From contig OZ024741.1 in NCBI GenBank assembly GCA_964016885.1, forward strand, positions 233,368,001-233,432,000: DNA of 64,000 nucleotides, written 5' to 3'. Both the position numbers and the translations under genes were made by a program. This stretch comes from Eledone cirrhosa (lineage: Eukaryota). The notes under the pieces were generated by a model. That model did not search any database and was not told the DNA's origin. It worked only from the letters and a program-made list of their open reading frames with translations. Of the stretch, positions 1 through 64,000 are shown piece after piece. Within the stretch, counting starts at the first letter, position 1. The number at the start of each line of letters is the position of its first letter.

Positions 1-1574
1 TCTCCAACAAATCAACTTCTGCATGTATGTTTGTGTTTGTGAGAGAGAGAGAAACATACATACATAATAACACTTTACTGCAAAAAAGTGATTGTTTTGT
101 TTAATCTCCTGTGTGGTGTTCTAGCATGGCCTTACCCATGATGGCTAAAAACAACTAAGGAACTGAATGACCACATATTACTGGTACACAATTTTATTTA
201 CTAATTTGAAGCCATGTTTCTTTTCTTTCACAAATTTACATGTTTTATACATCTTATACCTAGTCATAGTATATTCACCAGAGCTGAGTGCTCAACATAG
301 ACTGAAAGAGTTCCCTGATCTCTGCCCATCTGAGAATACAAACCTCACACCTTCATTTAGGTGCCTGCAGCTATCTCATACACTAGAAAACAACTGTGTC
401 ACACTAATTCTGCCTGAGAATTACATTAAAAGTACATATGTCTATGGAATATTCAGCCACTTACATGCTAATTTAATGAGCAGGCCATTCCATTGATTGA
501 ACAACTGGATACTCATTTGTTGAAGCTGACAGAGGATCTATCATCATCTTTCTTTCTCTACCTCTAGCTATTTAATTATGAAGGTTGGATTGTATCTTTT
601 TGTTTGCCAAGCAGACTGAGGTTAGCACAGTGATGTATCTTGTCCATAGATACAACACAATGTTTCAAGCTCTTCATGTTGTCACTAGTTTACCTAATTA
701 ACTTCACTGTTATTCAGCCCTGTTTTTTTTTTCTATCAGTTAGTTAGAAGGAAGGTCAGTGAGTTTTATCATTTTAAGGATTTATAACTGGTAAGAAGAT
801 GAGAAGGTGCCCTCAAACTATACATGCATACACACATATATCTGACTTGTCTAGCCTCAGAACATGAGAATCTGTTTAATTCATGCAAGCATGTAAAATA
901 GATGTAAAACAGTGATGATAATGCATATCTAAACTATAATAAAGTAAGGAGCGCGGGACTGCGTACGGTTTATAATTTTTTTATCCCATTAGTAAAATAA
1001 GTTGGACTACTTTGAATAAATAATGAATGAATATTACATAATTTATCTACTAAATTTCGTGGCTGTTGATTAAATATATTTTATTGTTTATTTTAAGATT
1101 CACTTCTTTAAAATTTTCAAATGTCAACACTTCCGGTTAGCAATCACTTAAATAAATATTCATATATTTCTATAACTAATTTTCTCCTAATGCAGTTTAT
1201 ATATAATATCGTCTTTTTTTAATGTATCATGGATTACGTTACTGGTTACATAAGAGAGTGTAACACAGTCTTCGTTCAATTTCTGTGTATATTGTCAATT
1301 ACGATTTTATTTGATCATATCTACATGCATATATACTTGCGTATAATATCAATATACACACTACACATGCTAGCAGAAAACCAACCAAGGGTGGTTTTTC
1401 TGCTGGTATAATATAATCATCATTATCATCATCACTGTTTAATGTCCATTTTTCCATGCTTGCATGGGTCAGCTGGGTCGCCGAGAAAGTGCCATGTAGA
1501 AAGATAGAACCCAAAGCCACATGATTGTGAAACAAACTTCTTAACCACATAACCATGCCGTTTTCCTTTTTCAT

Positions 1575-36451: not shown

Positions 36452-36640
36452 AGTGGTTGTGTAGGTGTCACAACAAAAAGCACCCAGTACACACTACAAA
36501 GTAGTCTTGTAGGAGAAACGCCCAACCGACACTGTAAAATGGTCTTGTAGGTGTCATAACACAAATCACCTAGCCCACACTGTAAAGTTGTTGTGTAGGT
36601 GTCACAACAAAAAGCACCCAGTACACACTGTAAATGTGGA
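36452..36640 (+). repeat. Tandem amplification of the SINE/RTE 3' UTR sub-repeat, about 39 bp
   Basis: GTAGGTGTCACAACAAAAAGCACCCAGTACACACTGTAAA repeated about five times. Confidence 0.75.
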
Positions 36641-36699
36641 TGAAAGTCATTTGATGGGGCCGAGTGGCAGAGGCGGAGAATGGCAACAAAACCACAATT

Positions 36700-38690: not shown

Positions 38691-38740
38691 ATTATTATTA
38701 TCATTATTAATATTATTATTATTATTATCATTATTACTAG

Positions 38741-40569: not shown

Positions 40570-41220
40570 TATTTGCTACAAGGGCTTCAAATGAGGAGAT
40601 ATTACAAAGAAAAATTACATAAAGTGTGAGGGTTTACATAAGAATTGGATAAGAAAAAAATTGATTATGTCCTCCAAATAGGGAAAATCTTGTAGCCCAA
40701 CAAGTTCGCAGTCACCCTCTTTACCGTGGGTGAATGCCATTTTCTGATTTTCCCTCTTTGACCTACAGGTTCATGTTGAGAGTAGAACCATGCATTCATG
40801 CCATTTTCACCACAGTCACTCATCTTTTATAAATTTCACTGGAGGAGAGCATCCCTCTTACTATCACTTTTCTTTTCAAGTCATTGTTCTTCCTTGCCAC
40901 TAGTCCTTTATAAACTGCCGGAGTGGAACCTCCATCAATTACATTACCCTACTGGTAGAGGTCAGTGAGCACTTGATGACATTCCAGATGCCGGGTACTC
41001 AATCTCAATTATTGCTTGACCAAGGACTGCTGCTCAGTGAAAGGGACAAACTGTGGGAAGATGAGCTTTACAAACAGAGACCTTACAAGTCACATTCCAC
41101 ATGCCACTCGTAACATAAGAAACACTAAGATAACACAAAAAGCAAGCTAAACCTTCACCTCAAAAATAAGAACACACACCTCAGGAATATGGAGGTCCAT
41201 CTAGTGATGCAGTAAAAACC
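40570..41220 (-). mobile_element. Tx1/L1-like 3' fragment
   Basis: Reverse-complement similarity to 37740-37870 and about 38310-38330. Confidence 0.55.
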
Positions 41221-42276
41221 TATTTCTAACTGTCAAAGAATTTTTTTTTCTAGCATTGGCACAAGGCCAGCAATTTGGGGGAAAGAAAAATCAATTATAT
41301 TAACTGGTACTTTATTTTATTAACTCTAGAAGGATGAAAAGCAAAGTTAAGCTCAGCAGGATTGGAACTCAGTACATAGAAAGTTGTAACTAAATACCAC
41401 AAAGCATTTTGTCCAGTGCTCTGCCGATTCTGCCTATCCATCACCCTTATAAATGATGATGGGGGTGGTTTTAACGGCAGATAAATTTTTGGTTTATCAT
41501 TCTCTCTTTCCATATGGTTTATTGATATTAATAGTAGTTTCATTACAACTAAATGTCAATATTGAGGCGGTATTGCTTTGGAAATGTTGTGCATTGATTA
41601 TGTTTTGATAATTCTTCAAGATTGTTCTGGCTTCACCTATCTGGTATCAGAGTAGGTTAGAACAATAAAAGAATGGTTCAGTTGTAAAACTAGAAATTGG
41701 TGAACAATTTGGTTTACAGTAGGTAATAGTAAGAGGCTTCTTAACTCCTTATGGGGCTGAAGGTATGCTGACCTGACACACAGGATGTCTTGGGCATTTT
41801 ATTCTTGGCAGATCCCATTCCTCTCTAGGTTTAAAAACAGCTGATTTCTTCTAGAGAAAGAGAGAATGATAAACCAAAACATTGGTCCTAGTAATGAACT
41901 GGTACTTTATTTATTGGCCTAGAAAGGATGAAAGGCAAAGTTGATCTTGGTGTGATTTGAACTCAAAGTACAGTGAACTGGAACAAATATCAAAGCATTT
42001 ATAATCCAATGGCCTACAACTTAGCCAATTCACTGCCTTTGGTTTACAGTGCCTATGTCAAATCTCACATGAGCGTATAACTAAACACAAAATATATTCC
42101 GTAGTATTTCTGTGGACAGTCCAAGCTGCAAGTTTACCTCTATTTATACAACATATAATTTCACCTTTTCCTTTACTGTTTGTGTGGTTCATAGGTAGTG
42201 TTGTGAGGGGGAAGATACTGACTTTGAATATTTTTACCAGGTTACTATTGCTAATAACTTTGAATTTTCTTACCAG

Positions 42277-42768
42277 GTTATTGCTGATAAAGGCTCAGAT
42301 GATGCTGCTCCAATGCCACCATGTTCTGACAGTAACTGGGGCCCCAGTGTTCCAGTCGACCAACTTGGACTTATTCCATCACATGAGGACCCTGTCATCA
42401 CCACCGGTGATGGCAATGTAAAGCTCAACTTCAAGAAGACTCGTCCTGCCCACCTTCTTTGCAAACTTCGCCAACAAGGAAAAGGTCCAGATGACCTTCA
42501 GGAGTTTGTTACCGATAAAGATGAGCCAAACAACATTGTCGTCAATGCCAACCTACCTGCACCTGGTGAGTATGGCTTGGAAATCTACGGCAATGACCCT
42601 TCAAAGGATGGTGATACATATACCCACATCTGCCAGTATTTCGTCCATTATGCCAAGCCTGAAGACCAAGATAGAGCATTCTACAGTGACTCACCTGAAA
42701 GAAGACAGATCTTCTCCAAGTCTCCTCAGTCCACAGCAATTAATGGTTTCAGTCCAACCAGCACCACT
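42277..42768 (+). CDS. Hillarin/KY-like, coding exon 6 (VIADKGSDDAAPMPPCSDSNWGP...LPAPGEYGLEIYGNDP...PTSTT)
   Basis: 492 nt, phase 0 to 0, ttcttaccag acceptor and gtaagt donor. WGP, GL.P.SH and P..GEYGLEIY motifs match KY/hillarin C-terminal Ig-like repeats. There is no stop before the donor, so the gene continues downstream. Confidence 0.92.
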
Positions 42769-43033
42769 GTAAGTACTCACAACCTTATATTATTACATTC
42801 ACTTTCACTAGCATATGAAAAAGTAAAAATCAATTTCCCTCCTTCCCTCCTGGGTTAGTCAGGAACAGCATTATGAAAAAGTTGCTATATTGACATCAAC
42901 CACTAATCCATCAATTACTATATTTTACACAATAAATTCAATATCCTGGGCCTACTTGGTTCTCATCTAGCTGCTTATTATTAATTGCTGTGTGTGTACT
43001 TGTGTTTTCTTGTTGGAGATATATATATATATA

Positions 43034-43312
43034 TTGTGGGTTCAATTCTCAGACCGGGTGATGTGTTGTTTCCTTGAGCAAGACACTTTATTTCACATTG
43101 CTCCAGTTTACTCAGCTGTAGAAATGAGATGATAGGGACTGAGGTCACTATCATTCCACTGCAAAGTGGACATGGAGGTGCCATGGCAAAAAAGCACCCA
43201 GCACTCACTGTAAATGAGGTTGGTGTTAGGAAGGGCATCCAGCTGTAGAAATCAAGTCAGAATCAGTTCCCGTCCCACCCTTGCAAGCAGGGAAAAGCGG
43301 ACGTAAAATGAA
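43034..43312 (+). mobile_element. SINE family A, 5'-truncated
   Basis: Begins at the B box; same body and tail. Confidence 0.85.
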
Positions 43313-43334
43313 AAAAAAAAATGAATATCTATAT

Positions 43335-43927
43335 GGGATAACAAGTTATCGTTATATGTAATGCAGTTAGAGGTTGTGAGTACTCTGTGTCGTGGATAGT
43401 TTTAACGTACGTCTTTGTTTGACTCAACAAGATGTTTCCATAGTTAGGTAGGGAGTTCGCGAGAATTCCTATGCAGGTCATTCTTGGAGTAATAATAGTG
43501 AAAGATTGAAGAATAACATGGTCGGCTGTACAACAAGGGGCTTTATTTCAAGTATTAACAATTGTTTCATTGATCAGGTGAGTCTAGAGGCCGCTAATCA
43601 CTCGAAGTTGCGTCACTCGACCTCCAATACAGTGTTTACCTCTGATCTGCGTCACTCGACCTCCAATACAGTGTTTACCTCTGATCTGCGTCACTCAACC
43701 TCCAATACAGTGTTTACCTCTGATCTGCATCACTCAACCTCCAATACAGTGTTTACCTTTGATCAAATCCTCAGAATATTCTGAGGATTTGATCAGAGGT
43801 AAACACTGTATTGGAGGTCGAGTGATTAACGGCCTCTAAACTCACCTGATCAATGAAACAATTGTTAATACTTGAAATAAAGCCCCTTGTTGTACAGCCG
43901 ACCATGTTATTCTTCAATCTTTCACTA
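43335..43927. mobile_element. Non-autonomous Penelope-like palindromic element plus left tail
   Basis: Palindrome 43496-43927 centred at 43777/43778; the left arm carries extra 39-bp tandem units; the tail 43335-43495 is homologous to 50116-50285; flanked by (TA)n. Confidence 0.75.
43777..43870 (+). ncRNA. Type I hammerhead ribozyme at the centre of a fold-back element
   Basis: TATT CTGAGGA T-TTGATCAG...CTGATCAA-T GAAAC-AATT-GTT AATA. Stem I is only 4 bp because the fold-back junction truncates it; GUU triplet; AATAAA at about 43876. Confidence 0.72.
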
Positions 43928-44174
43928 AATATATATATATATATGGATATAGATATATAGATAGGTAAAATTCAGACCGCAGCACCAAGCAGTTACAGCT
44001 TGTGTGTTCAGCTAGCCTTTTCATGGTTGTCTCCTCAGTCTCAACACTGCAGATTCTCTCTCTCAATATATATGTGTGTGTGTGTGTGTATAATTAAGGG
44101 TGGAGTTCGAATGAGGGTAAGAAAAATGACCGCAGTTTAAAAAGGTACTTAATACGTTGGTACAGTGTAGGCAT

Positions 44175-44286
44175 TTTTATTTTATATAGAAATGACTTCT
44201 ACAGGACTAGAACTATTTCATTCCTGATGATTTCATATGAATGAAACAGTTCTAGTCCTGAAGAAGTTATTTCTGTATAAAATAAA
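44175..44286. mobile_element. Short fold-back element with a 5'-truncated hammerhead (44224-44260)
   Basis: Arms of about 48 bp. CTGATGA T-TTCAT-ATGAA-T GAAAC(T)AGTTCTA GTC CTG; the 5' strand of stem I is lost at the fold-back point. Confidence 0.55.
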
Positions 44287-46382
44287 GATAGAAATATATA
44301 TATATATATGTCATAACACAAACACAAGCCACTCTCCAAAGTTCCCAATGGATAGTGCATCCAAAATATATTGGGATTAATAAATATTACAAAGGTAACA
44401 TAATCTCAAATCTTGTTTTACTTCTTCTTCTCCCTTTATTTGCACTCAATCTCCCCTTTCATTCCTCATTAGATTTTGTTATCTCAATATTTTCAACTCC
44501 ATCTACATTGTAGTGGCTTGCAAGACATGGCATACACACACATATATATGTACAATATATAAATATTGTATAATATTTTAGGTCCCACCCATGCTAGCGT
44601 GGAAGATGTTAAACGATGATGATGATACATACATACATACATGTGTATGTGTGTATATTTACTGAGCTTTGTGCCTTTATTCATGATTTATATATATATA
44701 TAGGAAAATCTTCAAACCCCTGGGGTCTTGAACATTTTCCTATTACTCACTCTACTACCCTAAGTATTGAGTACTCTGGTGCGTTATGGTCCACCTGGTT
44801 CCTTACCACACTTCCTTCGTTTTATATATATATATATATATATTATTATATATATACACACATATCATCATCATCAATGTTTAACGTCTATCTTACATGC
44901 TACCATGATATATATATCTATATCTATATCTATATATATATTGACTTTGCCTTTCATCCTTACGGGGTCGATAAAATAAAGTACCAGTAATGCACTGGGT
45001 AATTGCTGGCCTTGTGCCTAAAATAGAAACAATTATATTATATATATAATATATGTATATATTATTATATATTGGCAGTGTCGGTAGAGGGTCGGACGCC
45101 ATGCTTTCCAGCATAGTTACGTCCCTTTACGATCTGAGTTCAAATCCTGCCGAGGTTGACTTTGCCTTTCATCCTTACGGGGTCGATAAAATAAAGTACC
45201 AGTAATGCACTGGGTAATTGCTGGCCTTGTGCCTAAAGTAGAAACAATTATTATTATATATATACATATATATAATATATATAAAAGATGCTGATGATGA
45301 TACATACATACATATGTAAGTGCGTATATTTACTGAGCTTTGTGTCTTTATTCATGATTTCATCATCATCATCATCACCGTTTTAAGCATGAGTTAGACG
45401 GATTGTCCTGTTGTAGGCAGTGTCCGGTCGGCTGACCTTGTCTTGCTCATACGGGAACTGATTCTGGCTTGATTTCTACAGCTGGATGCCCTTCCTAACA
45501 CCAACCTCATTTACAGTGAGTGCTGGGTGCTTTTTTTCCGTGGCGCCTACACGTCCACTTTACAGTGTGGGCTGGGTGCTTTATTGCTGTGGCACCTCCT
45601 ATATATATATATATATAAATAATATATATATATATATAAACAATGACGATGATCACACATACATACATATGTATGTGTGTATATTTACTGAGCTTTGTGT
45701 CTTTATTCATGATTTATATATATATATATATACATATCATCATCATAAACGTTTAACGTCTATCTTCCACGCTTGCATGATATATATATATCATGCAAGC
45801 GTGGAACATGGACGTTAAACGATGATGATGATGATATATTGTATATATATTATATATATTATATTATATATATAATATATGTATATATTATTATATGTAT
45901 ATATTATCATATATATGGGCGGAGGTGGTGAGAGCAGACCTCAGATCACTGAAGCTCATGGAGGAGATGACGAAGGATCGTGACAAGTGGAGAGATGCTG
46001 TGCTGAATAGGACCCATCCGACCCTTGCAAGCAGGGAAAAGCAGACGTAAAATGATGATGATATATATATATATATATTTATATTATATAATATTTCAGA
46101 CACACTTGTGTATGGGTATATTTCTGTCAGTGTGTATATTCACTGCACCCTGTGCATTTATTCATGATTTCTATATTTTTGTCCCATATATCACATGTAT
46201 ATATATAATACATACATGAAATATGTGTTTGTGTGTCTGTGTGCTATGATCATTGTTTTAACCTGTATTGTTCCAGACCAGCCTAGGTTAGATAAGTCTG
46301 TAATATATATGTCTTCAATCTCGTGTTCTCTATTATCTTGATAATTCTCTCTCTCTCTCTCTCTCTCTCTACATCTCTCTTC

Positions 46383-46421
<39 letters not shown>

Positions 46422-46540
46422 CTGATGATTGTGTTAACTAATATAAATAACTGGAGGCTGACAATAGCTACTAACCCACTCATCTCTCTCTCTCTCACAC
46501 ACACACACCCTCTCACTCTCTCACACACACACCCTCTCAC

Positions 46541-46574
<34 letters not shown>

Positions 46575-47965
46575 CCTCTCACTCTCTCTCTCTCTCTCAC
46601 ACACACACACCCTCTCACTCTCTCTCTCTCTCTCACACACGCACACCCTTTTACTCTCTCTCACACACACACCTCTCTCTCTCTCTCTCTCTCTCTCTCC
46701 ACCACCACCATCAATAACTGAATTACTGGGTTCAGTTCTGGAATGTTGGTAATGGCAGCTGTTTCTGTGTATATTGGTTATATGTGCTTAATTTGTTAAT
46801 GAATGATGATAACACATTAATGATGTGTGTATATACATATATGTGTGAGTGTAGAAGAGAGAGAGAAAGAGAGAACTTTATTGGCAGTATCGATAGAGGG
46901 TCAGACACCATGCTTTGCAGCACAGAGTTACGTCCCTTTACAGACTGAGTTCAAATCCCGCCGAGGTTAACTTTGCCTTTCATCCTTACAGGGTCGATAA
47001 AATAAAGTACCAGTAATGTACTGAGTAATTGCTGGCCTTGTGCCAAAAGTAGAAACAATTATTACATTGATTGTGTGTGTGTGGACAATATGCCCCCACC
47101 CCCTCCCACTGAAAAGTGTCGTGGCGGTTCCACGGCAAAAAAGCACCCAGCCGACACTGTAAAGTGGATGTGTAGGCGCCACAGAAAAAAAGCACCCAGC
47201 ACTCACTGTAAATGAGGTTGGTGTTAGGAAGAGCATCCAGCTGTAGAAATCAAGCTAGAATCAGTTCCCATATGAGCAAGACATGGTCAGCCGACCAGAC
47301 ACTGCCCACAACAGGACAACCCGTCTAACCCATGCTAGCATGGATGAACGGACGTAAAACAGTGATGATGATATGTGTATATAACACACAACAGCATTAC
47401 AGATGTATATATAACAAGAACACTACCTTAACCTTGCTCCTTCTTGTTTATTGGACCAGTGTCTCATTTATTAAATCTTACATTGCTGAACTATTTCTCA
47501 TATATGATACCTTTACCTTCCTTCAAATGAGCATTACATTCTGACTGGTATGTTACCCTACCATCTTCAGGTGGTGGGATTTTTTTGTCTATTTACTACT
47601 TTGAATGTTAGCAATGCACCATGCCCAGTGTGAAGTTTGAACCCTCAGAACCTAACTACTTCATAAAACCAACAACAGTGTGATATGTTACCAGCTGTTT
47701 GTGGTGAGCAGTGTTTGTGATATTTAGTTATGGCCCTTTATATTTCAAGTCATCTTTATCTTTTATCCTTCTGGGGCTGATAAAATATCAATTATATACT
47801 GCGGTTGATATCAATGGAAGTATAATAGAGGATACATGTACACATGAGGCTAGCTGGTCATCTACATTAAGTAAAATGTATTGTATATGAAAGCCTTTTT
47901 AATCTCATTGCTTCTTCTGTCCTTCCTACTTTGTCATTTCCTCTTTCTTACACACTCTGCCCCTC

Positions 47966-48030
<65 letters not shown>

Positions 48031-48614
48031 TTCCCTCTCTCTCTCTCTCTCTCCCTCCCTCCCTCCCTCCCTCCCCCTCCCTCCCTCCCTCCCTCCCTCT
48101 AGAGAGAGAGAGAGAGGGGTATCATCATCATCAATCATTTTTCATCCATGAGTTACAATAGGTTGTCAATATCCAAGACTAGACAGGCCAGGATGGAAGG
48201 CACTTCTTGCTCATGTTTCATTTTTGGCATGATCTCTACAGCTAGATGTCATTCCTAATACCAACCACTTTACAGAGTGTACTGGGTCTATTTTGGTGGC
48301 ACCAGCACATAGCACCCAAATTATATTCAAGAATATCAACTATTAGTAAAGTCATTCTCATAATTTTTCCACTATATTATACTGTACCAAGGATTTTCTC
48401 ATTTTCTACTACTCAGTGTGTGTGTGACAGATAGATATGGATATATGCATGTGTTTCTATGGACACACACTCACATGAGCCCATCTGTTAAATGAACAAT
48501 GAAAACTAAAAAGACAAGATGGTCAAAGCTGAAATGCTTTTGATCATAATTCAGCTTGTCTCAATCAGAGTTGACCTGTTGTTAAATAACAGCTACAACA
48601 CACCATTAAGAACT

Positions 48615-49220
48615 ACAGGCTACCCATGGTAAAGTTTCACCCTAGTTAGACTATGTCTGACTACCCACAATATAGGTTCACCCTAATAAGACAATGTCAG
48701 GCTACCCACAATATAGGTTCACCCTAGTTAAACTGTCAGGCTACCCACAATATAAGTTCACCCTGGTTAGACTATGTCTGGCTACCCACAATATAGGTTC
48801 ACCTTGGTTAGACTGTGTCAGGCTACCCACAATATAGGTTCACCCTAGTTAAACTGTCAGGCTACCCACAATATAAGTTCACCCTGGTTAGACTATGTCT
48901 GGCTACCCACAATATAGGTTCACCTTGGTTAGACTGTGTCAGGCTACCCACAATATAGGTTCACCCTAGTTAAACTGTCAGGCTACCCACAATATAAGTT
49001 CACCCTGGTTAGACTATGTCTGGCTACCCACAATATAGGTTCACCTTGGTTAGACTGTGTCAGGCTACCCACAATATAGGTTCACCCTAGTTAAACTGTC
49101 AGGCTACCCACAATATAAGTTCACCCTGGTTAGACTATGTCTGGCTACCCACAATATAGGTTCACCTTGGTTAGACTGTGTCAGGCTACCCACAATATAG
49201 GTTCACCCTGGTTAGACCTT
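48615..49220. repeat. Minisatellite with a 121-bp higher-order unit (39+41+41 bp)
   Basis: Monomer GGCTACCCACAATATA(G/A)GTTCACC..GTTA.ACT..GTC; three variants cycle in a fixed order about four times. Confidence 0.95.
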
Positions 49221-49853
49221 ATAGGTACATGCCTGGCCAAATATCAATAATCTAGTAAGAACAGTTTTGGCCACATTAGCTGTGAGTTTGGATATATGTA
49301 GTAGCCAAGGTTGGAGTCTGTACATGGTCACTTGATCTCCTACAAATGGCAACTAAATCTCCCTCAAATCACATTCTACCATCTTTAAAAAATGCACAGT
49401 GGACAGTGTAGTTACCTGATATACAAAATGGTAGGATCATAGGTCTGCTGGAAGAGACTTAACCAAAGATTAAAGGATAACAACAAAAACAACGTTTTAT
49501 CATGAAATTGATGATGAAACCCTTTATGTGGTTTTTCTATTTGCTAGAAATCACATTCAAATCAGTAATAGTTGGAATGACTTTGACCATAACTGGCTCG
49601 GTGTTTCATAATGATACATACATACAAACATCTAGACAGTATATTCACCCACTTATATGCACATGCATTTACAAAAATTCAAATACACACACAAAAGCAC
49701 ATATACACATACAGCCAAAGGCACATGCACACACAACTCTAGTAAAGTCTAAATACCTATCTTGCCCTTCCTTTAAATATTTAAGCAAACTAAACAAGTG
49801 TTTCTGGCTGATAATTGGTGGGTGTGTATATATATATCATCATCGTCATCATC

Positions 49854-49904
<51 letters not shown>

Positions 49905-50295
49905 ACACATATATATATATATATATATAAACAGTAATTGATGTCGGTTCTAATTTCAAAGTCCAATATAATTATATTGTTAGTTTGCATCTTTAGTATA
50001 AGATAGAGACATGTAGTGGTCATGTTACACACACACACACACAATTTATACTTTTATATATATATACATATATGTATATATATGTATGTGCGTATATATA
50101 TATATATATATATATGGGATAACACATTATTGCTATAGGTAGTCCACTTCGATGTAGTCCAGTTAGGGTACTCCGAGTAGTGGATAGTATTAACGCTTGA
50201 CTAAGTTTGACTCAACAAGACGTTTCCATAGTGATGCTGCGAGTACGCGGTGATTTCTATGTTGTTTACACTTGGAGTAATAATAAATCAAGAAA

Positions 50296-50628
50296 GAAGG
50301 CACATGGCTTAGTGGTTAGAGCATTGGCCTTGCATCGAAAGGTTGTGAGTTCAATTCTCAGACTGGGTGATGTGTTGTTTCCTTGAGCAAGACACTTTAT
50401 TTCACATTGCTCCAGTTTACTCAGCTGTAGAAATGAGATGATAGGGACTGGGGTCCCTATCATTCCACTACGAAGTGGTCGTGGAGGTGCCACGGCAAAA
50501 AAGCACCCAGCACTCACTGTAAATGAGGTTGGTGGTTAGGAAGGGCATCCAGCTGTAGAAATCAAGCCAGAATCAGTTTCTGTCCCACCCTTGCAAGCAG
50601 GGAAAAGCGGACGTAAAATGATGATGAT
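50296..50628 (+). mobile_element. SINE family A
   Basis: Full head, body and (ATG)n tail. Confidence 0.88.
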
Positions 50629-50669
50629 ATATATGTATGTATATATATATGTATGTATATATATATATG

Positions 50670-50720
<51 letters not shown>

Positions 50721-51673
50721 ATATGTATGTATGTATATATGTATGTATGTATATATGTATGTATGTATATATGTATGTATGTATATATATATGTATGTAT
50801 ATATGTATGTATATATATATGTATATATATATGTATGTATATATATATGTATATATATATGTATGTATATATATATGTATATATGTATGTATGTATATAT
50901 ATATGTATGTATATATATATGTATATATATATATGTATGTATATATATATGTATATATATATGTATGTATATATATATGTATATATATATGTATGTATAT
51001 ATATATGTATATATATATGTATGTATATATATATGTATGTATATATATATGTATATATATATGTATATATATATGTATATATATATGTATGTATATATAT
51101 ATGTATATATATATGTATGTATATATATATGTATATATATATGTATGTATATATATATGTATATATATATGTATGTATATATATATGTATGTATATATGT
51201 ATGTATATATATATGTATGTATATATGTATGTATATATATATGTATGTATATATGTATGTATATATATATGTATGTATGTATATATATATGTATGTATAT
51301 ATATATGTATATATATATGTATGTATATATATATGTATATATATATGTATGTATATATATATGTATATATATATGTATGTATATATATATGTATATATAT
51401 ATGTATGTATATATATATGTATATATATATGTATGTATATATATATATATGTATATATATATGTATATATATATATATGTATGTATATATATATGTATAT
51501 ATATATATATATGTATGTATATATGTATGTATATATATATATGTATGTATATATATATATGTATGTATATATATATATGTATGTATATATATATATGTAT
51601 GTATATATATATATGTATGTATATATATATATGTATGTATATATATATATGTATGTATATATATATATGTATG

Positions 51674-51732
<59 letters not shown>

Positions 51733-51913
51733 GTATGTGTATATATATGTATATATATATATATATGTATGTATATGTGTGTATATATATATGTGTGTAT
51801 ATATATATGTATGTATATATATATGTATGTATATATATATATGTATATATATATGTATGTATATATATATGTATATATATATGTATATATATATATATAT
51901 GTATATATATATG

Positions 51914-51945
<32 letters not shown>

Positions 51946-52120
51946 TGTATATGTATATATATGTATATATATATATATATATGTATATGTATATATATGT
52001 ATGTATATATATATGTATATGTATATATATGTATGTATATATATATGTATATGTATATATATGTATGTATATATATATGCATCTATATATATGTGTATGT
52101 ATTTATATATATGTATGTAT
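50628..52120. repeat. Compound (TA)n/(TATG)n microsatellite, about 1.5 kb
   Basis: Only TA/TG dinucleotide permutations. Similar tracts at 54866-55655, 56005-56650 and 58193-58680. Confidence 0.98.
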
Positions 52121-52268
52121 GTAGATTTTGAGTTTATGTTGGTTGTATACCAACACCTCAGTATGCAGGCTGGAGCACTCGAAGTGCGCAGGTTGGTTTG
52201 GTTACTCCGGAGTAGTGTAAAATAAAGTTAAATAAAAGTCAAATGATTAAAATTTAGCTTCGTTTATT

Positions 52269-52323
52269 ACTGCTATATATATTTCAGTGACAGCCATCTT
52301 TGGCTGTGACCTCTTCAGGCAGT
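52269..52323 (-). ncRNA. Type I hammerhead ribozyme, antisense copy of 52519-52573
   Basis: Exact reverse complement within the left arm of the 52219-52625 inverted repeat. Confidence 0.83.
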
Positions 52324-52518
52324 TTGAATTAGTGTGGTATAGACAAGTACATATGTTGTTTAGGTGTATAATATTGTCAATACTCTGATATGCCCAGTTC
52401 CATATGACTCTAGTTCCTCAGAGAAATAACAACCCAACAAGGAACTGGGCATATCAGAGTATTGACAATATTATACACCTAAACAACATATGTACTTGTC
52501 TATACCATACTAATTCAA

Positions 52519-52573
52519 ACTGCCTGAAGAGGTCACAGCCAAAGATGGCTGTCACTGAAATATATATAGCAGT
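52519..52573 (+). ncRNA. Type I hammerhead ribozyme (canonical core)
   Basis: Stem I ACTGC/GCAGT; CTGAAGA; stem II GGTCACAGCCA-AAGA-TGGCTGTCACT; GAAA; palindromic short stem III T-ATAT-A; AUA cleavage triplet (after 52568); AATAAA follows. Confidence 0.85.
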
Positions 52574-52816
52574 AATAAACGAAGCTAAATTTTAATCATT
52601 TGACTTTTATTTAACTTTATTTTATGTATGTATATATATATGTATTATCATCATCTTCGTTTAACGTCCATTTTCCACGCTAGCATGGGTTTGACGTATG
52701 TGTATATATATATATATGTGTGTATATATATATTTATATATATATATGTATATGTATGTATATATATATGTGTATATATGTATATATATATGTATATATA
52801 TATGTATATATATATA

Positions 52817-52866
<50 letters not shown>

Positions 52867-52872
52867 TGTATG

Positions 52873-54865
52873 TATCATCATCATCATCATCATCAACGTT
52901 TAACGTCCGTGTTCCACGCTTGCATGGGTTTGGACGGGGGTAGTCCCACTTGAGGCAAGAGTGATTGTCTTGCTCGCATAGGACTGTCTGGCAGGTTTTC
53001 TACAGTTGGATGCCCTTCCTAACACCAACCACATTTACAGTGTGGGTCTGGGAGGTTTTTACCGTGTTGCCTACACGGCCACATTACAGCGTGGACTGTG
53101 TTTTTTGTCGTGACACCTACACGATCTCATTTGTTTCGGCCTGGATGGCGCGGCACCAACATAACTTTACATAGAACGGGGTGGTGTGGATGGGGTGGGG
53201 GTGGTGGCGGGACGGGGTGTATTTTGTTAGAGATGCCTACTGGCAAGGCGGGTCTTCTCTGTTACTGAGTACCGCCAAAGGTCTCGGTCCAGTGACATTG
53301 TCTTGGAGAGGTGTAAGTGTGTGAGGTCGGAGTTTATCAGCTCATCCCATGTTTTTCTAGGTCTGCCTATTCCGTGGCTACCGTCTATCTTTATTGCCCT
53401 GCACTTTGTTATACAGCTATCGACTTTCATGCGCATCACGTGTCCATACCAACGCAGCCTTCTCTCGAGTAAACAACATCTGATCCCTCTTATCTCTAAT
53501 TTTTTCCTTAGTTCGTTTATGCTTTGCCGTTCACGTATATTACTGTTACACATCCAGCGGAGCATGCAAGCTTCGTTCCTCTCTAGTCTGCGTATATCCT
53601 CTGCACACAATGCCCAGGTCTCACTACCATGCAACATTGCTGTTCGTATGCAGGCATCGTACAACCTGCCTTTCATTTTTAGGGAGAACCCTTTAGCAGC
53701 TAATAGTGGTATAAGCTCTCTGAACTTTTTCCAACCAGTTCTGACTCTAGCTACAGTACTTTCAGAGCACCCTCCCCCACTGCTGATTTTATCGCCCAGG
53801 TAACGGAAGCTGTCCACTATTTCTATAGAACCCTCTGCGCAATTGAAAGAGCTAGTATTTTGTGGGCACTTGCTGCTACTTATTGCACCAGAACACCGGC
53901 CACATGTAAAATCTATGTTCTTAGTTAGCTTACCTGTGATCCCACTACATCTTTTATGCACCCATACTTTGCATTTAGGACATAAAATGGAGTTTCTACC
54001 TACGCCTTTCCTACACACCGAGCACGACCATTTCCCAGAAGGGACCGCCGCCTTGTTTTCTTTCCTACAAACTAGAACTTTGGTCTTAGCCAGGTTAATT
54101 TTAAGTCCTTTTGACTCTAGGCCGTGCTTCCATGTTTGGAATTTCTTCTCTAGCTCGGCCATTGATTCCGCTATGAGTGTCAGGTCGTCTGCGTATAGGA
54201 GTTCCCATGGGCAGCCTGTCTTGAACTCCTCTGTTATAGCCTGAAGGGCAATAATAAATAGTAGGGGGCTGAGAACAGAGCCCTGATGGACGCCAACTTT
54301 TACGCTAAACTCTTCACTATATTCGTTGTTAATTCTAACCTTGCTGACTGTTTCTTTATACATGGCTTGTATAGCCCTCACAAGCCATTCGTCAACGCCT
54401 ATTTTTCTAAGAGCCCACCAGATAATGGAGCGGGGGACTCTGTCGAAGGCTTTCTCCAGGTCGACAAAAGCTAAGTAGAGGGGTTTACCTTTAGCTAGGT
54501 ACTTCTCCTGTAGTTGTCGTACTATGAAAAGAGCGTCTGTGGTGCTTTTGCCTGACACAAACCCGAACTGCATTTCATCTAGGTCAATTCTCTCTCTGAT
54601 TAGTTGCGCTATTACTTTTTCCGTGACCTTCATGACCTGGTCGATTAATTTAATGCCTCTATAGTTACTCCTATCTAGGGCGTCTCCTTTACCCTTATAA
54701 CAGTTAACGATGATGCTGCTATGCCAGTCCTTCGGAACAACCCCATTCTGTACGACTTGGTTAACTATGCGGGTGACCATGGTGTGTCCCACCGTGCCAG
54801 ATGCCTTCAGCATCTCAGCAACTATTTCCGAAGGCCCAGCCGCCTTACCCGTCTTCATATCCTTG
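52873..54865 (-). mobile_element. RTE-clade LINE, young 3' portion with intact RT ORF (53227-54858, 543 aa)
   Basis: [35 protein letters not shown], a Cys-rich PHD-like insert (CSVC...[12 protein letters not shown]), RRLRWYGHV; (ATG)n tail at about 52875-52895. Confidence 0.92.
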
Positions 54866-54928
54866 ATATATATATATATATATGTATGTATGTATGTATA
54901 TATGTATGTATGTATGTATGTATATATG

Positions 54929-54959
<31 letters not shown>

Positions 54960-54978
54960 ATATATATATATATGTATG

Positions 54979-55011
<33 letters not shown>

Positions 55012-55208
55012 ATATGTATATATGTATGTATATATGTATATATATGTATATATGTATATGTATATATGTATATATATGTATATATGTATATGTATATATG
55101 TATATATATATGTATATATATATGTATATATGTATATATATATGTATATATATATGTGTATATGTATATATATATGTGTATATGTATATATATATGTATA
55201 TATATATG

Positions 55209-55243
<35 letters not shown>

Positions 55244-55254
55244 GTATATATATG

Positions 55255-55287
<33 letters not shown>

Positions 55288-55288
55288 G

Positions 55289-55541
<253 letters not shown>

Positions 55542-55560
55542 GAATATATATATATATATA

Positions 55561-55592
<32 letters not shown>

Positions 55593-55600
55593 AATATATT

Positions 55601-55633
<33 letters not shown>

Positions 55634-55679
55634 ATATATATATTTATATAATATATAAGAAAAAAAGAGGGTTAAAGGA

Positions 55680-55998
55680 AGAGATGATTGCCAGTAGTCT
55701 CTTAATTATTCTCTAACTACCTCTATCGTCTTATTGATCCAGCTCTCAGCCAGTAATATGCCCACCCTACCTAACCCATCATCATTACCCACCCAGAAAA
55801 GCTTATAACTACAATGTTTGCCTGCGATTAATCTTGCAGAGGCACCTCTCCATCGCACCTCTTGCACACAGCACACATCCACATGCTTTCTTTCCAGCAT
55901 CTCTGCAATCTCACCAGATCTACCTGTTAGGGTGCCAACATTAAGCGTGGCAACTCTGAGATGCGACATCCCGTTCTTTTTCCTGTTGTGCGATTGCT
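55680..55998 (-). mobile_element. RTE LINE APE endonuclease N-terminal fragment
   Basis: [14 protein letters not shown]...[13 protein letters not shown] motif. Confidence 0.85.
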
Positions 55999-56477
55999 TG
56001 ATGACGTATGTATGTATATATATGTATTTATATATATATATATGTATATATATATATACATATGTATGTATATATATGTATTTATATATGTATATATATG
56101 TATGTATATATGTATATATATGTATTTATATATATATATATATGTATATATATATACGTATGTATGTATATATATGTATATATATATACGTATGTATGTA
56201 TATATATGTATTTATCATCATCATCATCATCATCATCATCAACGTTTAACGTCCGTGTTCCACGCTTGCATGGGTTTGGACGGGGGTAGTCCCACTTGAG
56301 GCGTGTATGTATATATATATATATGTATTTATATATATATATATATGTATATATATATTTATATATGTATATATATATGTGTATGTATATATATATATGT
56401 ATTTATATATATATATATATGTATATATATATTTATATATGTATATATATATGTGTATGTATATATATATATGTATT

Positions 56478-56513
<36 letters not shown>

Positions 56514-56593
56514 TGTATGTATATATATGAATCTATATATATATATATATATTTATATATGTATATATATATATGTATGTATATATATGAATC

Positions 56594-56647
<54 letters not shown>

Positions 56648-56649
56648 TA

Positions 56650-58192
56650 TCATATTCATCATCATCAAAGTTTTACGTCCGTTCTTCCACGCTAGCATGG
56701 GTTAGACGGGTTGTCCTGTTGTGGGCTGTGTCTAGTTGGCTGACCATGCCTTGCTCATACAGGAACTGATTTGGCTTGATTTCTACAGCTGGATGCCCTT
56801 CCTAACACCAACCTCATTTACAGTGAGTGCTGGGTGCTTTTTCGTGGCGCCTACACGTCCACTTTACAGTGTGGGCTGAGTGCTTTTTTGCCGTGGCACC
56901 TCCACGACCACCTTGCGGTGGGGGCATATTGTCTATATGCTTCAGCTTGTACCCATGGGAGGTCGGGTACTCTGTATTACTGCGTGACGCCAGAGGTAAC
57001 GGTCGTGTGTCATTGCCTTTGAGAGGTGTAATTGGGTATGGTCGGCTTTTATCACCTCATCCCAGGTCATCTTGGGTCTCCCAACTCCGCGGTTTCCATC
57101 GACTTCTAGTGCTCTGCACCTTTTTATTCAGCTGTCATCCTTCATATGCATCACATGTCCATACCAGCGCAACCGCCTCTCCTGCACATAGCATTTGATT
57201 CCTCTTATGCTCAGTCTCTCTCTCAATTCATTTATGCTTTGTCGTTCACGTATATTACTGTTACACATCCATCGGAGCATGCAGGCTTCGTTTCTCTCTA
57301 ATCTACATAAGTCTTCCACCTTCAGCGCCCAGGTCTCACTACCATGCAACATCGCTGTTCGGATACTCGCATCATACAGTCTGCCTTTCATACTGAGGGA
57401 GAAGCCTTTTGCAGCTAGCAGTGGTAGTAGTTCCCTAAACTCCCGTTCTTACCCTAGTTATTGTACTTTCTGAACACCCACCTCCGCTGCTAATTTGGTC
57501 ACCTAGGTAGCAGAAGCTGTCTACTGTTTCTACAGAGCCCTCCCAGAGATTGGTGGTACTTGTTTCCTGTGGCTGTTTGCTGCTTGCTGTCCTAGTACAG
57601 CTGCTGCATGTGAAGCCTACATTCTTAATTAAGCTTCCTGAGATCCCGCTACATCTCTTGTGTACCCATTGTTTGCATTTGGGGCAGAGAATGGAGTTCC
57701 TACATACTGAGCAAGGCCATTTCCCTGAGGGGATCTGGGTTCTGTTTTCTCGTCTACTTACAAGGACCTTAGTCTTTGTCATGTTGACTTTGAGACTCTT
57801 TCTTTCTAGTCCCTGCTTCCAAGTTTGGAATTTCTTCTCTAGTTCTACCATAGATTCAGCTATGAGTGCAAGGTCATCAGCATACAGGAGTTCCCATGGG
57901 TATCCGGTCTTAAACTCCTCCATTATTGCCTGCAGGACTATGCTGAACAGGAGGGGGCTAAGAACAGAGCCCTGGTGGACCCCAACCTGTATGCTAAATT
58001 CCTCGCTATACTCATTGCTAATCCTAACTTTGCTGACTGCTCCCCTATACATGGCTTGTACCGCTTTCACAAGCCATTCATCTACTCCTAGTTTTCTAAG
58101 AGCCCACCAGATTACAGCACGTGGAACTCTGTCAAAGGCTTTCTCAAGGTCGACAAATGCCAGGTAGAGTGGCTTACTTTTAGCTAGGTACT
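56650..58192 (-). mobile_element. RTE LINE 3' fragment with disrupted RT
   Basis: [16 protein letters not shown] and RRLRWYGHV in frameshifted ORFs; its 3' UTR matches the body and tail of the SINE family A. Confidence 0.9.
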
Positions 58193-58199
58193 ATGAATG

Positions 58200-58254
<55 letters not shown>

Positions 58255-58265
58255 GTATATATATG

Positions 58266-58387
<122 letters not shown>

Positions 58388-58439
58388 TGTGTATATATAT
58401 ATATGTATATATGTATATATATATATATATATGTGTATG

Positions 58440-58472
<33 letters not shown>

Positions 58473-58479
58473 GTGTATG

Positions 58480-58540
<61 letters not shown>

Positions 58541-58563
58541 ATATATATATATATATGTGTATG

Positions 58564-58621
<58 letters not shown>

Positions 58622-60798
58622 TATATATGTATGTGTGTATGTATATATATATATATTATAATAGATATATTATATATAAGACTTGTCTCTCGACGCAGAC
58701 AACCTGCCTGGCCCATATAAGCATAGAAAGCCTGTTTAACAGTGATGATGATGATCATCATCATCATCATCATCATCACTGTTTAACCTTTTCCCATACT
58801 TGCATGAGTCAGCCGGGTTGTCTGCGTCGAGAGACAAGTCTTGATGATGATCATCATCACCGTCTAGCGTTCATTTTTCCACGCTACCATGGGTTAGATG
58901 AGTTCTCCTCCTATGTGACAAGCCAGATCAGATGACCGTGTCTTGTTCATGCAGAACTGATTTTGGCTTGGTTTCTACAGCTAGATGCCCTTCCCAACAC
59001 CAACCACATTTACAGTGTGTGTTGGGAGTAATTTTCTTATGACACCTACACAACTACTTTACGGTATGAACTGGGGATGGGGAACTTAACAGGTGAGGTG
59101 TGGGGTATTGGGGAGTGGGTGGGGAAGGTAGGGGAAAGTGGTGCATACTGAATGTGTGTGTATATATATATATATATATATTCATATAAAAATGAGAAAA
59201 CTCATCGCTAGAAAAGCTATTAAAACAGCAAAATGCTGTCAATGACAGCAATGAGCAACAGTGCCACAGAGGCCAGTAGCCAGTAGTCATACCATTTTAA
59301 AATGCTGGATCATGCAACAGAAAAATATATCTTTCTGCTAGTATGATGTGTATGTGATAAAACAAGCAGCACAGATAGCAGAAAGAATACTCAAGCTGTA
59401 GTGTTCCACCACCAGATCACTCTTTGTCTGGCTGGCACTTTGCTGCAACCACAAGTCCCATCAGTAGTTCACAATAGGTTGTCAACATATTATATATATG
59501 AACCCATGCTAGCATGGAAGATGGACGTTAAACGAAGATGATGATGATGATGATGAATGTGTGTGTGAGGAATATATTGAAAGCAGTAGCACTTACATTG
59601 CATGATTCATAATATAGGTATAAATGAAGGCACACACAATATGTTTATGTAGAATACACATAGAGATTTTGCTATGATCTTGTCATAGCTATCTCAGTTA
59701 CTGTGTGAGAATGCCTGGCTCTAGTATTTTCAGGATTTATTATCCATCATCAGTGAGACTAGAATAAGTTATAGCTTATATACTTTGTGTGTATAAAACA
59801 TCTGCTGAAGAAGTTCATTTGCATACAGATGGGATTAGCAGTAGCAGTAACATAATGGGATTCATAATAGAAGTGTATATGGAGGCATATATAATATGTT
59901 TGTGGATGATAAACATATACATGACTAAACTACTCTTAAAAGTAGTGCCCCAGCATGGCCACAATCTAGTGACAGAAACCAGTAAAGGAATATATGTGTG
60001 TGTATGTATGTATATTTGTGTATGTCTGTTTGTATGTGTGTGTGTGTTTGTATGTATGTATGTATGTGTATGTATATACATGCATGTGTATGTGAGTGTG
60101 TGTGCCCAAACACAAATGAAAGCTGATGCAGACAGGAAAACATGAATTCTTTCATCTCAGTCTCTATTGTAACTAAATATAGTTTATATTTTGGTTATTT
60201 TAGCTTCACAGTTGTGTTTCTGTTATAGAATTCACCTTTCTTTTTTTTTCCTTGTTATGTCGTTTCAAACAAAAACTCAAATAGAACAATACCTGAAACC
60301 AAAATAGCGACATTAAAAATCCCCACTCTCCACCATTAGTGCTAATATATAACTCTATTGACCATTTTATTCTTCCATGTCTGTCTGTGAGTCTACAATG
60401 TGCAGCAATGCATTACATTCCCATGACTTGGCATTTAAAACAGAAAATAATGGTGATTAGCACACAATTGCATCTGCTAGAGCACCTGACTGTAACTCTA
60501 CATCACTGCAGCAGCCACTGAGTGACCAACTCAATATGTTGCTTTAACTAGCTGCCTTTAATGTACGTTGTCATGATGATGGTGGTAGTGGTAATTATAG
60601 AGATGATGGTGGTGGTAGTGATTTTGATGGTGATGGAGGTGATGGTGGTGGTGGTAATGATGACGATGGTGGTGATGGTAATGATGGAACATATGAGCAA
60701 AATGTGGTGCCTCATCCAGTCTAATCTTGAACTGTGAAGCCCCATCCAACCGAAGTGAGCAGGAAAAGCAGATATAAAATGATGATGATATATATATG

Positions 60799-61035
60799 TA
60801 GTTTACTAACTAGATAGCTATTTAATTGTCAAAGCTTTTTTGTCACACATTCTGTGACCTTCTCAATGACTATTCCTGCTCCTCTGTGTCTCTTCATTTT
60901 GAATTTGTTTAATTTGCTCTATCTTGTCTTAAAATAGAGAAGAGATACAAGAGAGCAAGAATAGTCATAGATAAGGTTACAAAATGTGTGATGAAAGGGC
61001 TTTGACGATTGAATAAACATCCAATTACTAAACTA
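60799..61035. mobile_element. Diverged fold-back Penelope-like element with two degenerate hammerheads (60828-60870 minus, 60964-61006 plus)
   Basis: Imperfect inverted arms of about 100 bp. Consensus GTCA TTGAKAA G-GTCACA-GAATG-TGTGAC GAAA..GC TT TGAC, then AATAAA. Confidence 0.6.
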
Positions 61036-61036
61036 A

Positions 61037-61897
61037 TCTATCTATATATATAAAACTGTGTTTGTCTGTCTGTCTATCGATTTTTGGCACACATCTCCTC
61101 TTAGAATCTCTCACGGAATTGCACCGAAATTGCTATACTTGTACATTGAGCCCTAGCGAAGACATCGGAAAAAAAAAAATTTCAAATTGACCCACCCTAT
61201 GTGACGAAATCGAATATAATGTATCGATTTTTGAGCGTAAGTTATCAGTTATTTCCCTTTGTTCTGTTTACATTGAGCGTCTTACGTAAAAAATTACGCG
61301 GGCTTTCTCAGCGTTTAAAATGACACGAACAGTTGTTGAGCCAGCAAAATATTGACCTGCAAAATTCATCAGTTCGAACACTAAGCTTCCGTTTTGCTTC
61401 ATTTCCATTTAAAAGCCTTTTAAAACAATATTTTTACTTGAAAACAAGTCTATTTAAAGACTACGTAAAACAAGCAAATATATGTATCTGTAAATTTCGT
61501 TAGGCGTGCAGACAGACAGTCGTGCAGAGAGGTGATATAGGCGTGCAGACAGACAGTCGTGCAGAGAGGTGATATAGGCGTACAGACAGACATAACTGAT
61601 AATTTGGTTACGCTAATGTTTTTCTCTGCGTTGCAGTGTTTACGTTTTCGATCTTTGTTAATAAATAACCAGTGCAGTTTTTATCCCCAGCATCCTCTGT
61701 TGTTATAACATTCGGGTTATCGTTATGTTTTCTTAACTTCATAAGGCATATTGTTGGTTGAGGGGATATTAATCAAAAACACCATATGCAAGTCTGCACA
61801 GTAGACACTACAGTTTTTAAGCCAATAAAGAAACTTAACATTGAAACTTTAACACAGCTACTGAGCGACCCCGAGCAACGCCGGGCTTTACTGCTAG
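61037..61897 (+). mobile_element. Non-autonomous Helitron
   Basis: 5' TCTATCTATATATAAAAC, subterminal hairpin CCCGAGCAACGCCGGG, 3' CTAG, inserted between A and T; internal 37-bp tandem repeat 61501-61590. Confidence 0.85.
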
Positions 61898-62494
61898 TTA
61901 ATAATAAAACTGGAGTGAAACTCAATTAATGCATGTGTTTTTATTAGCAGCATAACCCTCCAAAAGTATAACAATATATATATATGTGTATGTGTATGCT
62001 TGGTAAACACACATCTGAGCTGAGGGTGCTACTGTACTCCATCTCCAAATGTAGGAGTCAATGTCTTATCAGGCAGTGAAGTAACTCTGAAGCTGTTTTG
62101 GCCCCTTCCACTGTGATACCAGTGCTACTTGAGGCTACCTAACAATGTGACAAAGCTCCTGCACTACAGTATACCTCAACACATTAGAACAGCATGGAAT
62201 TCATTGAATCTGTTGGTGTATCTCCAAGCGAGACATCACCAGATATAGTGAGTTGCTTTCTGACCAGCTTACAATAATTTCTTTGAAACTTATTTCCTTT
62301 CTTTTGCAACCAGCCCAAGGCATTGAGTTCACCCTCCTTCCAACAAATCTGACACCTATCGCTACATCATATATACTCATGTATAAATTACAACTTCATC
62401 TTATATATGATATTTTTGGTTCAATATTTGAAATGCATGCTGGTTTTTCTTTGTTTGGGGGCGTTTTTGTTTTTTCTTTGTTTGGGGGGGGCGG

Positions 62495-62525
<31 letters not shown>

Positions 62526-62875
62526 TTTGATTGATATACAAATATATAAGATATATGTAAGTATTTGTGTGCGTTTACTGGAGAGCATTATGAGAATGGT
62601 TCAGGGAGTGGTTGGAGAAATGGAGATAGTTAAAGTTGATATAACCCTTTGATGTTTGCAACAAAAAACTCAGCCAGTTTCAAGAAAGGGTTTAAAGAGA
62701 CGTAACCTTTATTTACAAAGGGGACAGGTGTGGGACATTTGAAGTGAGTCATAAAACATTGATACTTTATATTGTTCTATTTTTGAATGATGTTTATGTG
62801 TCTATGTGAATGGTGCTTATATGTATATGTGTGTGTGTTTATGTATGAATATATGTGCTTGTGTCTGTATGTATA

Positions 62876-63851
62876 CGAGGTGCATTCAAAAAGTATCCAC
62901 CCTTTGGGCATAAAAAAAACAATTTTGTACATTTCACAAATTTTATTTAATCACCTTCAACATACTCCCCCTCGGAGTTCACACTTCTCCCAACTGTTCT
63001 GCCACAGCTGGTAACACCTTTGGAACTCATTCTCTGGAATGCTATGGGGCTCTGCTGTTACTTTTCTCATAATTTCCTCTCACAACTCAAATCACTTCCC
63101 TTTCAGCGTGGTTTTCAGATTAGGGAAGAGCTAGAACTCACACGGTGCCAAGTTGGGTTGTAAACATAAATCCATGTCTCATCACCAGTGATGATGATCT
63201 TCATTAAATCTGGGTCGTGATTTGCACAGTCCAGCATGTTCTCAGCAATTTCCATGCTTCTACTGCTCTGCCAGTACCTTGGAGATGAATTTCGCCGACA
63301 CTCTCTGCATAAACAAACCCTCCATTGAAATGGAATACATCGATCCTGACCTTATTCCGACTTTGTGAGAAATTTCCAGGATTGTTGCACAACAGTTTTC
63401 TATGATTATCCATCAAACCTTCTCAATCAGCTCCTCATTCCTGCTTGTGGATGACCTGCCTTAGCATGCCTCGCTCTCCACTGAGGTGAAACAATGTTTG
63501 AAGCACTTATACCACTCCTTGATCTGGATTTCGCCCATGGTATCATCGCCAAAGGCCTGCTTAATCTTCTGGATGGTTTGAGCTTGAGTATCACCAAGTT
63601 TTTGGCAAAACTTCATGCAATATCTCTGCACGATGCGTTTGGTTGTTTTGCATGAAAACGAAAATCTGACAAGTGCCCACTATACATCTATACTTTAGCT
63701 ATAACAGCCAGGAACTGACATGGCCTACCGACGCGAAAATGTTCGTGCATGGGCAGAAGAGTAGCATCATCCACCCAAAGGATTTTACCCACACTGCATT
63801 AGTTTTGCCAAGGGAGGAAACTAAAGGCAGATACTTTTTGAATACACCTCG
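62876..63851 (-). mobile_element. Mariner transposon relic, internally deleted
   Basis: TIRs CGAGGTGCATTCAAAAAGTATC / GATACTTTTTGAATACACCTCG with TA on the left; transposase remnants QRYCMKFC..LG, IITGDETWIY.YNP, LAP...LFP.LK and GEYVEGD with stops. Confidence 0.9.
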
Positions 63852-64000
63852 TTTATGTGTGTTTTTGTGTATGTCTGTATGTATAAGATATATATATGTG
63901 TGTCATCATCATCATCATCATCATCATCGTTTAACATCTATCTTCCACGCTAGCATGGGTTTAGACGGGAGTTGTCTCACTTGAGGCAAGATTGGTTGTC

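Follow-up and report, generated by a model that had tools for sequence, protein, structure and literature searches.

A near-perfect palindrome in the genome of Eledone cirrhosa is very probably a 5'-truncated insertion of a Hydra-clade Penelope-like retrotransposon (Penelope-like element, PLE), composed of a tailed and an inverted tail-less ribozyme-bearing end that likely arrived in a single integration event. The insertion (52123..52624, 502 bp, without strand assignment) lies in a 64,000-nt stretch of DNA, hereafter the window, and joins the two copies head-to-head. Its inverted repeat is formed by arms of 184 nt each (52218-52401 and 52441-52624), which differ at one of 184 sites (52334 G / 52508 T) and are separated by a loop of 39 nt, bearing out the near-perfect hairpin with a 39-nt loop that a sequence-only reading of the window had described. 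The boundaries given by that reading (52219..52625) enclosed arms that are real and were incomplete, as they missed 95 nt on the minus strand (52123-52217) that comparison of flanks between copies revealed to be common to other copies and confined to one arm. Because this tail is present on one side only, the insertion is asymmetric.

The tail (minus strand) measures 95 nt here and ∼98 nt in the family, the window copy being without 3 nt, and where copies are long it passes into the ORF at its 5' end. Next to it lies the tailed copy with its hammerhead (52218..52401, minus strand; pLTR positions 40-223), followed by the loop (52402..52440, plus strand), which represents pLTR positions 1-39 of the tail-less copy and starts at the 5' hot spot of the family (CATATG), and then by the tail-less copy itself (52441..52624, plus strand; pLTR positions 40-223), which stops at the upstream 3' end used in the family and adjoins TA repeats. 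At the junction the tailed arm thus runs from pLTR position 40 and the tail-less arm from position 1, with a 1-nt overlap. An exact-pattern search of the genome, which variant copies would escape, returned this junction once; therefore, the palindrome likely arose in place. The claim that the insertion is young is supported by the single difference between the arms and by the 98-99% identity of the window copy to other family copies.

Target site and host gene

Ten pieces of an Octopus sinensis transglutaminase-like/KY-Ig protein align within the window and the 33 kb that follow it (identity 64-94%, at least 84% in eight of them), and the insertion falls within an intron of this transglutaminase-like/KY-Ig (hillarin-like) gene on the plus strand. 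The intron occupies 42769..64000 of the window and is 45.4 kb long, with its donor at 42769 and its acceptor at window-equivalent 88172, ∼24 kb past the window. The insertion sits 9.4 kb from the donor within a TA-rich microsatellite, flanked on the left by a (TA)n/(TATG)n tract (50490..52122, without strand) and on the right by a short TA-rich run (52625-52645); within this microsatellite no target-site duplication could be called at the insertion.

The hillarin-like gene was itself followed from 30641-42768 of the window (plus strand) to window-equivalent 96693 (L073, L074) and contains two transglutaminase-like/KY-Ig modules, and on the minus strand, near window-equivalent 120,000 (L076), there is another KY-Ig gene. 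Elsewhere in the window, a partial tRNA-like match (28986-29043, plus strand; 31 bits to Rfam model positions 8-63) is possibly the head of a tRNA-derived SINE, and fragments of non-LTR retrotransposon ORFs, recognized by eye from RT or AP-endonuclease motifs, were seen at 24879-26088, 35052-35963, 36822-37686, 53230-56125 and 57438-58190.

The hammerhead motifs

Each strand carries one outward-facing hammerhead motif: a minimal type I hammerhead at 52519..52573 (plus strand) and a mirror hammerhead of identical sequence at 52269..52323 (minus strand), with CUGAAGA at 52524 and 52318, respectively. On the plus strand, stem I (52519-23/52569-73) has 5 bp, the CUGAAGA core occupies 52524-30 and stem II (52531-56) has 11 positions, of which the first is a G.U pair and another a C.C mismatch; GAAA and an AUA site complete the motif, with a predicted cut after 52568. 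Helix III has only 2 bp and is closed by the self-complementary AUAUAUAU (palindromic at 52560-67), and the 10.1-11.1 pair is G.U, not G-C. A loose motif scan of the 64-kb window returned these two motifs only, with 4 matches in 20 windows of a shuffled control, and Rfam at its gathering threshold gave no hammerhead match in the window. The sequence-only reading had seen a textbook, canonical ribozyme on each strand: the outward-facing motif is indeed on both, but it lacks the stable helix III, the G10.1-C11.1 pair and the Rfam match of a canonical monomeric hammerhead.

What the sequence does contain is the intact core and the palindromic helix III/loop 3 of minimal dimeric PLE hammerheads. 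Akin to the minimal/dimeric type I PLE hammerheads treated in PMC4209133, the window motif combines a long helix II and a 5-bp helix I with a 2-bp palindromic helix III, and Schistosoma PLE hammerheads are reported there in pairs on opposite strands, 100-700 bp apart. In folding predictions of the isolated ribozyme, helix III formed with a probability of 0.09-0.16, at a cost of 3.4 kcal/mol. Two-strand MFE folding paired the palindromes, but in a non-active arrangement, and did not yield an active double hammerhead. According to the same source, a Schistosoma motif of this minimal kind was inactive as a monomer and showed low activity as dimers, and an anole PLE hammerhead is reported to have required protein (PMC11167929). 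By these predictions and by analogy with these relatives, the window ribozyme is probably near-inactive alone.

Position 11.1 (52556 and 52286 in the window) is U in the subfamily of the window; 5 of 46 arms and 1,523 of 3,730 reads of run X20 have C there, which makes the canonical G-C pair. The subfamily with the wobble pair has nonetheless spread. As a separate observation, the outward-facing hammerhead layout is common in the Eledone cirrhosa genome: the 36 loci scanned contained at least six such pairs from other hammerhead families (L002:1031/1149, L005:2505/2596, L033:1723/1827, L041:4472/4640, L047:6778/7841 and L050:3294/4771), whose helix III is mostly palindromic or near-palindromic.

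Parent elements and clade

A search of the genome with the element gave at least 85 matches (40 of 470 candidates scored), and a 20-nt family motif from the unit start, at whose site the window copy has a variant sequence, matched the genome exactly 4,436 times (control, 0). In the parent at locus L044 the order is pLTR end, tail, ORF, 1.1-kb 3' UTR, pLTR with hammerhead and tail, and an inverted copy of 1.8 kb without a tail precedes the whole; among 20 long copies, 14 likewise have an adjacent inverted copy at their 5' end. A fully open ORF was absent from all 20, whose longest frame measures 856 aa.

The ORFs of long copies contain the motifs RWK, DKT, YRDD, CxCX5C, CxxC..E..N..CxH and GIY-YIG. 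Pfam gave no RT match to RT fragments and the 856-aa frame, a weak RVT_1 match in one of 20 alignment members, and sub-threshold matches to GIY-YIG (E 7e-4 to 4e-3). PDB sequence searches with the element protein returned nothing useful, and the best fold matches of a predicted protein model (mean pLDDT 72) were telomerase RTs (E ∼1e-9, TM 0.3). The RT identity of the ORF is thus indicated by its motifs and by this fold search of a predicted model.

As in EN+ PLEs, the pLTR is joined to a single ORF with telomerase-like RT and GIY-YIG in the parents L044 and L056, which lie outside the window, and the pLTR carries a hammerhead motif in sense to the ORF; the window copy shows the inverted 5'-truncated copy and the one-sided tail, the latter of atypical length (∼98 nt). 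Section 11 of PMC8557442 diagnoses the Hydra clade by RWK, DKT, CxCX5C, CxxC/CxH around E and N, and GIY-YIG. The Eledone family has these motifs, with the CxCX5C linker, a C-terminal GIY-YIG endonuclease (EN), no CCHH as judged by eye, the hammerhead and, from its flanks, (TA)n insertion, and its motifs point to membership of that clade. It differs in its unit of ∼4.1 kb (against <3 kb, which that section gives as a tendency and not as diagnostic), in a 3' UTR of ∼1.1 kb and in a long insert of low complexity that separates thumb and EN. The supplement of the same paper (File S1) lists Hydra-1_Obim from Octopus bimaculoides as 2,507 bp without pLTR, whereas the Eledone family has a clear pLTR, a comparison of listed features rather than of sequences. 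Octopus Penelope families without ribozymes are mentioned in PMC13282606.

In the L056 ORF, the stretch between RT thumb and endonuclease contains long inserts of low complexity and low confidence at residues ∼445-585 and 655-715; they are missing from most relatives and recall the asparagine-rich inserts described for rotifer Penelopes in PMC3846280. Other PLE families lie near family copies (L033:2896-3795, L037:8277-9845, L042:1-1377, L043:8541-9692, L044:7124-8100, L046:1-3295, L046:7661-8959); they encode RT with GIY-YIG, some Hydra-like and some of another type, and likely have the (TA)n target in common. Two solo pLTR stubs with common flanks, 1,023 bp apart at L034:3512-4758, represent a local tandem duplication and not a retrozyme array.

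Ends and junctions across the family

For a census of pairing we took the first 100 of the 4,436 motif matches in the order of contig C1, without selection for context. Within 5 kb, these formed 20 head-to-head pairs (40 of the 100 matches), no tail-to-tail pair and three direct ones, and six of the 20 head-to-head pairs were perfect palindromes centred on CATATG. Among 30 arms, from ∼23 insertions, half (15) started at -3..+4 of the CATATG site, while 14 ended at 223, another 14 at 313-335 (one of them continuing into the ORF) and two elsewhere; not one of the 30 ended at the predicted hammerhead cut, 167/168. A tailed arm was paired with a tail-less one in 23 of 25 junction rows, drawn from 24 of 26 loci; these best-scoring loci form a biased sample, in which the junctions of short palindromes clustered in -1..56. 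With the exception of the perfect-palindrome class, junctions vary from locus to locus, and arms range from tens of bases to kilobases, sometimes with ORF sequence included.

The site of the single mismatch in the window varies in the family, with C in 27 of 46 arms, and partner arms differ there in five loci. Arms from the same locus diverged by 1.9% (26 pairs, four of which are not palindrome partners) compared to 3.6% for arms from different loci (1009 pairs), and at many loci private variants are common to both arms. CCAAT motifs are located at -52 and -182 of pLTR position 1. In raw Illumina reads of run X20, analogous antisense-to-sense joints land at 52401-52407 with several independent starts, and in three runs reads begin at 52402 after TA-rich sequence, so the 5' hot spot is not a product of assembly. 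Joints scored as 'opposite strands' at 52401/52438-52440 represent the normal continuation of the pLTR and were left out of the fold-back evidence.

Formation of the palindrome

These ends can be accommodated by a model in which the RNA would begin at pLTR position 1 and reverse transcription would set out within it at two start sites, one at position 223 and one at ∼322, which are the two ends of the tail, with priming on opposite strands of the nicked (TA)n target. The two short cDNAs would then be joined at their 3' ends, head-to-head. If both were complete, a perfect palindrome centred on CATATG would result; if one stopped early, or if the centre was trimmed, loops such as the 39-nt one of the window would be left. 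The RNA template would have been uncut at the hammerhead. Experiments in vitro with an anole PLE, as reported in PMC11167929, show that reverse transcription starts at two internal sites bounding the tail, that both target strands are extended and that uncut RNA is the main substrate. The single arm mismatch, being at a family-variable site, fits two templates. The CCAAT motifs would agree, as weak evidence, with an RNA start at pLTR position 1, which could alternatively be a hot spot of microhomology with (TA)n targets or a nick site.

Within the same PLE origin, it is possible, if less probable, that the mirror arm arose by fold-back, either because the cDNA or antisense RNA primed itself at the 5' stem-loop of the pLTR or because a perfect palindrome lost part of its centre. 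Self-priming on an antisense template, proposed for such junctions in PMC3846280, and later central deletion of a perfect palindrome would give similar products, and positions 1-53 of the pLTR are indeed predicted to fold into a stem-loop; junctions of short palindromes cluster in -1..56 in the biased sample. The private variants on both arms at many loci point the same way, and the closer similarity of partner arms would also fit fold-back copying. However, the loop in the window is sense-strand sequence of the tail-less arm and not the antisense overhang expected from folding of a tailed cDNA, six of the 20 pairs in the census are loop-free palindromes, the inverted arm stops at the fixed position 223 and not randomly, and in five loci the partner arms differ at family-polymorphic sites. 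We therefore favour the joining of two cDNAs begun at separate start sites.

It is very unlikely that the palindrome moves as a unit in its own right, as a MITE-like or viroid-like ambisense ribozyme element selected for silencing of its ribozymes. Short palindromes of near-identical sequence occur by the dozen, and by prediction the ribozyme fold is lost in the hairpin; yet, as far as an exact pattern that misses variants can tell, the window junction occurs once in the genome, junctions outside the perfect-palindrome class differ between loci, arms reach from tens of bases to kilobases with ORF sequence in some, the second ribozyme is no more than a mirror image in DNA and several other hammerhead families nearby have the same layout. 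A self-copying MITE was rejected on the unique junction and the variation of junctions and arm lengths among loci. A fold-back artefact of assembly or library is very unlikely as the source of the palindrome: a long microsatellite flanks it and no read or contig bridged the exact junction in four runs from other samples (a weak test, with reduced-representation reads and short contigs), but its arms differ at a family-polymorphic base, one arm is tailed while the other stops at the fixed site of the family, and raw Illumina reads show the analogous antisense-to-sense joints at 52401-52407.

Folding of the hairpin

The sequence-only reading had further suggested that the long hairpin out-competes the ribozyme fold, and in silico this was supported: the full hairpin folded at ∼-316 kcal/mol, with a probability of 0.000 for every hammerhead pair. 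Folding of successive prefixes, which addressed its proposed check of co-transcriptional folding, agreed, as the right arm zipped from ∼12 nt into its length, ∼70 nt before the ribozyme emerged. A transcript through the locus is plausible because the locus sits in a plus-strand host intron, and in such a pre-mRNA, masking of the ribozyme by the 184-bp hairpin is predicted as a by-product. The idea of a built-in self-silencing arrangement, understood as design, found no such support: the layout is a standard product of PLE integration, the junction is unique to the locus and helix III of the isolated ribozyme is predicted to form at only 9-16%. Moreover, a single transcript has one sense copy of the ribozyme only, so there is little to silence.

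Viroid-like ambisense RNAs replicate as circles and carry distinct plus and minus ribozymes. The palindrome is alike in having a ribozyme on each polarity and differs in being chromosomal DNA with one ribozyme duplicated. We thus agree that the likeness is superficial, as the second ribozyme repeats the first in inverted DNA and is not an independent antigenomic ribozyme, and a viroid-like replicon was rejected for a chromosomal sequence within a retroelement family of 4,436 matches whose ribozymes are identical mirror copies.

Relation to known elements

Published work already covers the architecture, the ribozyme type and the clade (PMC4209133, PMC8557442). EN+ PLE insertions, as presented in the text to Fig. 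2 of PMC8557442 and for Pen2a_Av in PMC3846280, are alike in their head-to-head inverted pLTRs with a tail on one end, in the partial tandems of long copies, in a palindrome or stem-loop at the pLTR 5' end and in the microsatellite target. The window insertion differs from them in consisting of two pLTR stubs without ORF and in having no callable target-site duplication, and the ∼98-nt tail of the Eledone family contrasts with the 30-40 nt of PLE tails in the published accounts consulted. Non-LTR retrozymes, as outlined in bioRxiv 10.64898/2026.07.22.740005, are likewise small, non-coding, hammerhead-bearing and PLE-related, but they form head-to-tail tandem arrays, and such an array was rejected here since the layout is head-to-head. 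Our literature search returned no description of the pLTR or the long tail of the Eledone family, and the consensus and ribozyme files of PMC8557442, outside its scope, may include a near relation of it.

Taken by itself, this locus is ordinary. Its family is young and abundant, its copies have a single sharp 5' end and two sharp 3' ends, and it offers good natural material on how PLEs form inverted ends. The two-start-site model, which comes from the anole Poseidon, would be extended to a Hydra-clade element whose tail is about three times as long as usual, and in this family the hammerhead cut does not define the ends of insertions. Hairpins of this near-perfect kind in the introns of a coleoid would be natural substrates of ADAR or Dicer. 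More speculatively, and with a doubtful chance of holding in full, the family may preserve the second half of PLE integration in unusual detail: thousands of its copies may stem from a short RNA with one start base and two start sites ∼98 nt apart, copied onto opposite target strands and sealed via a self-complementary CATATG end, whose perfect intronic hairpins would then supply dsRNA that, edited or diced, may help to repress the family.
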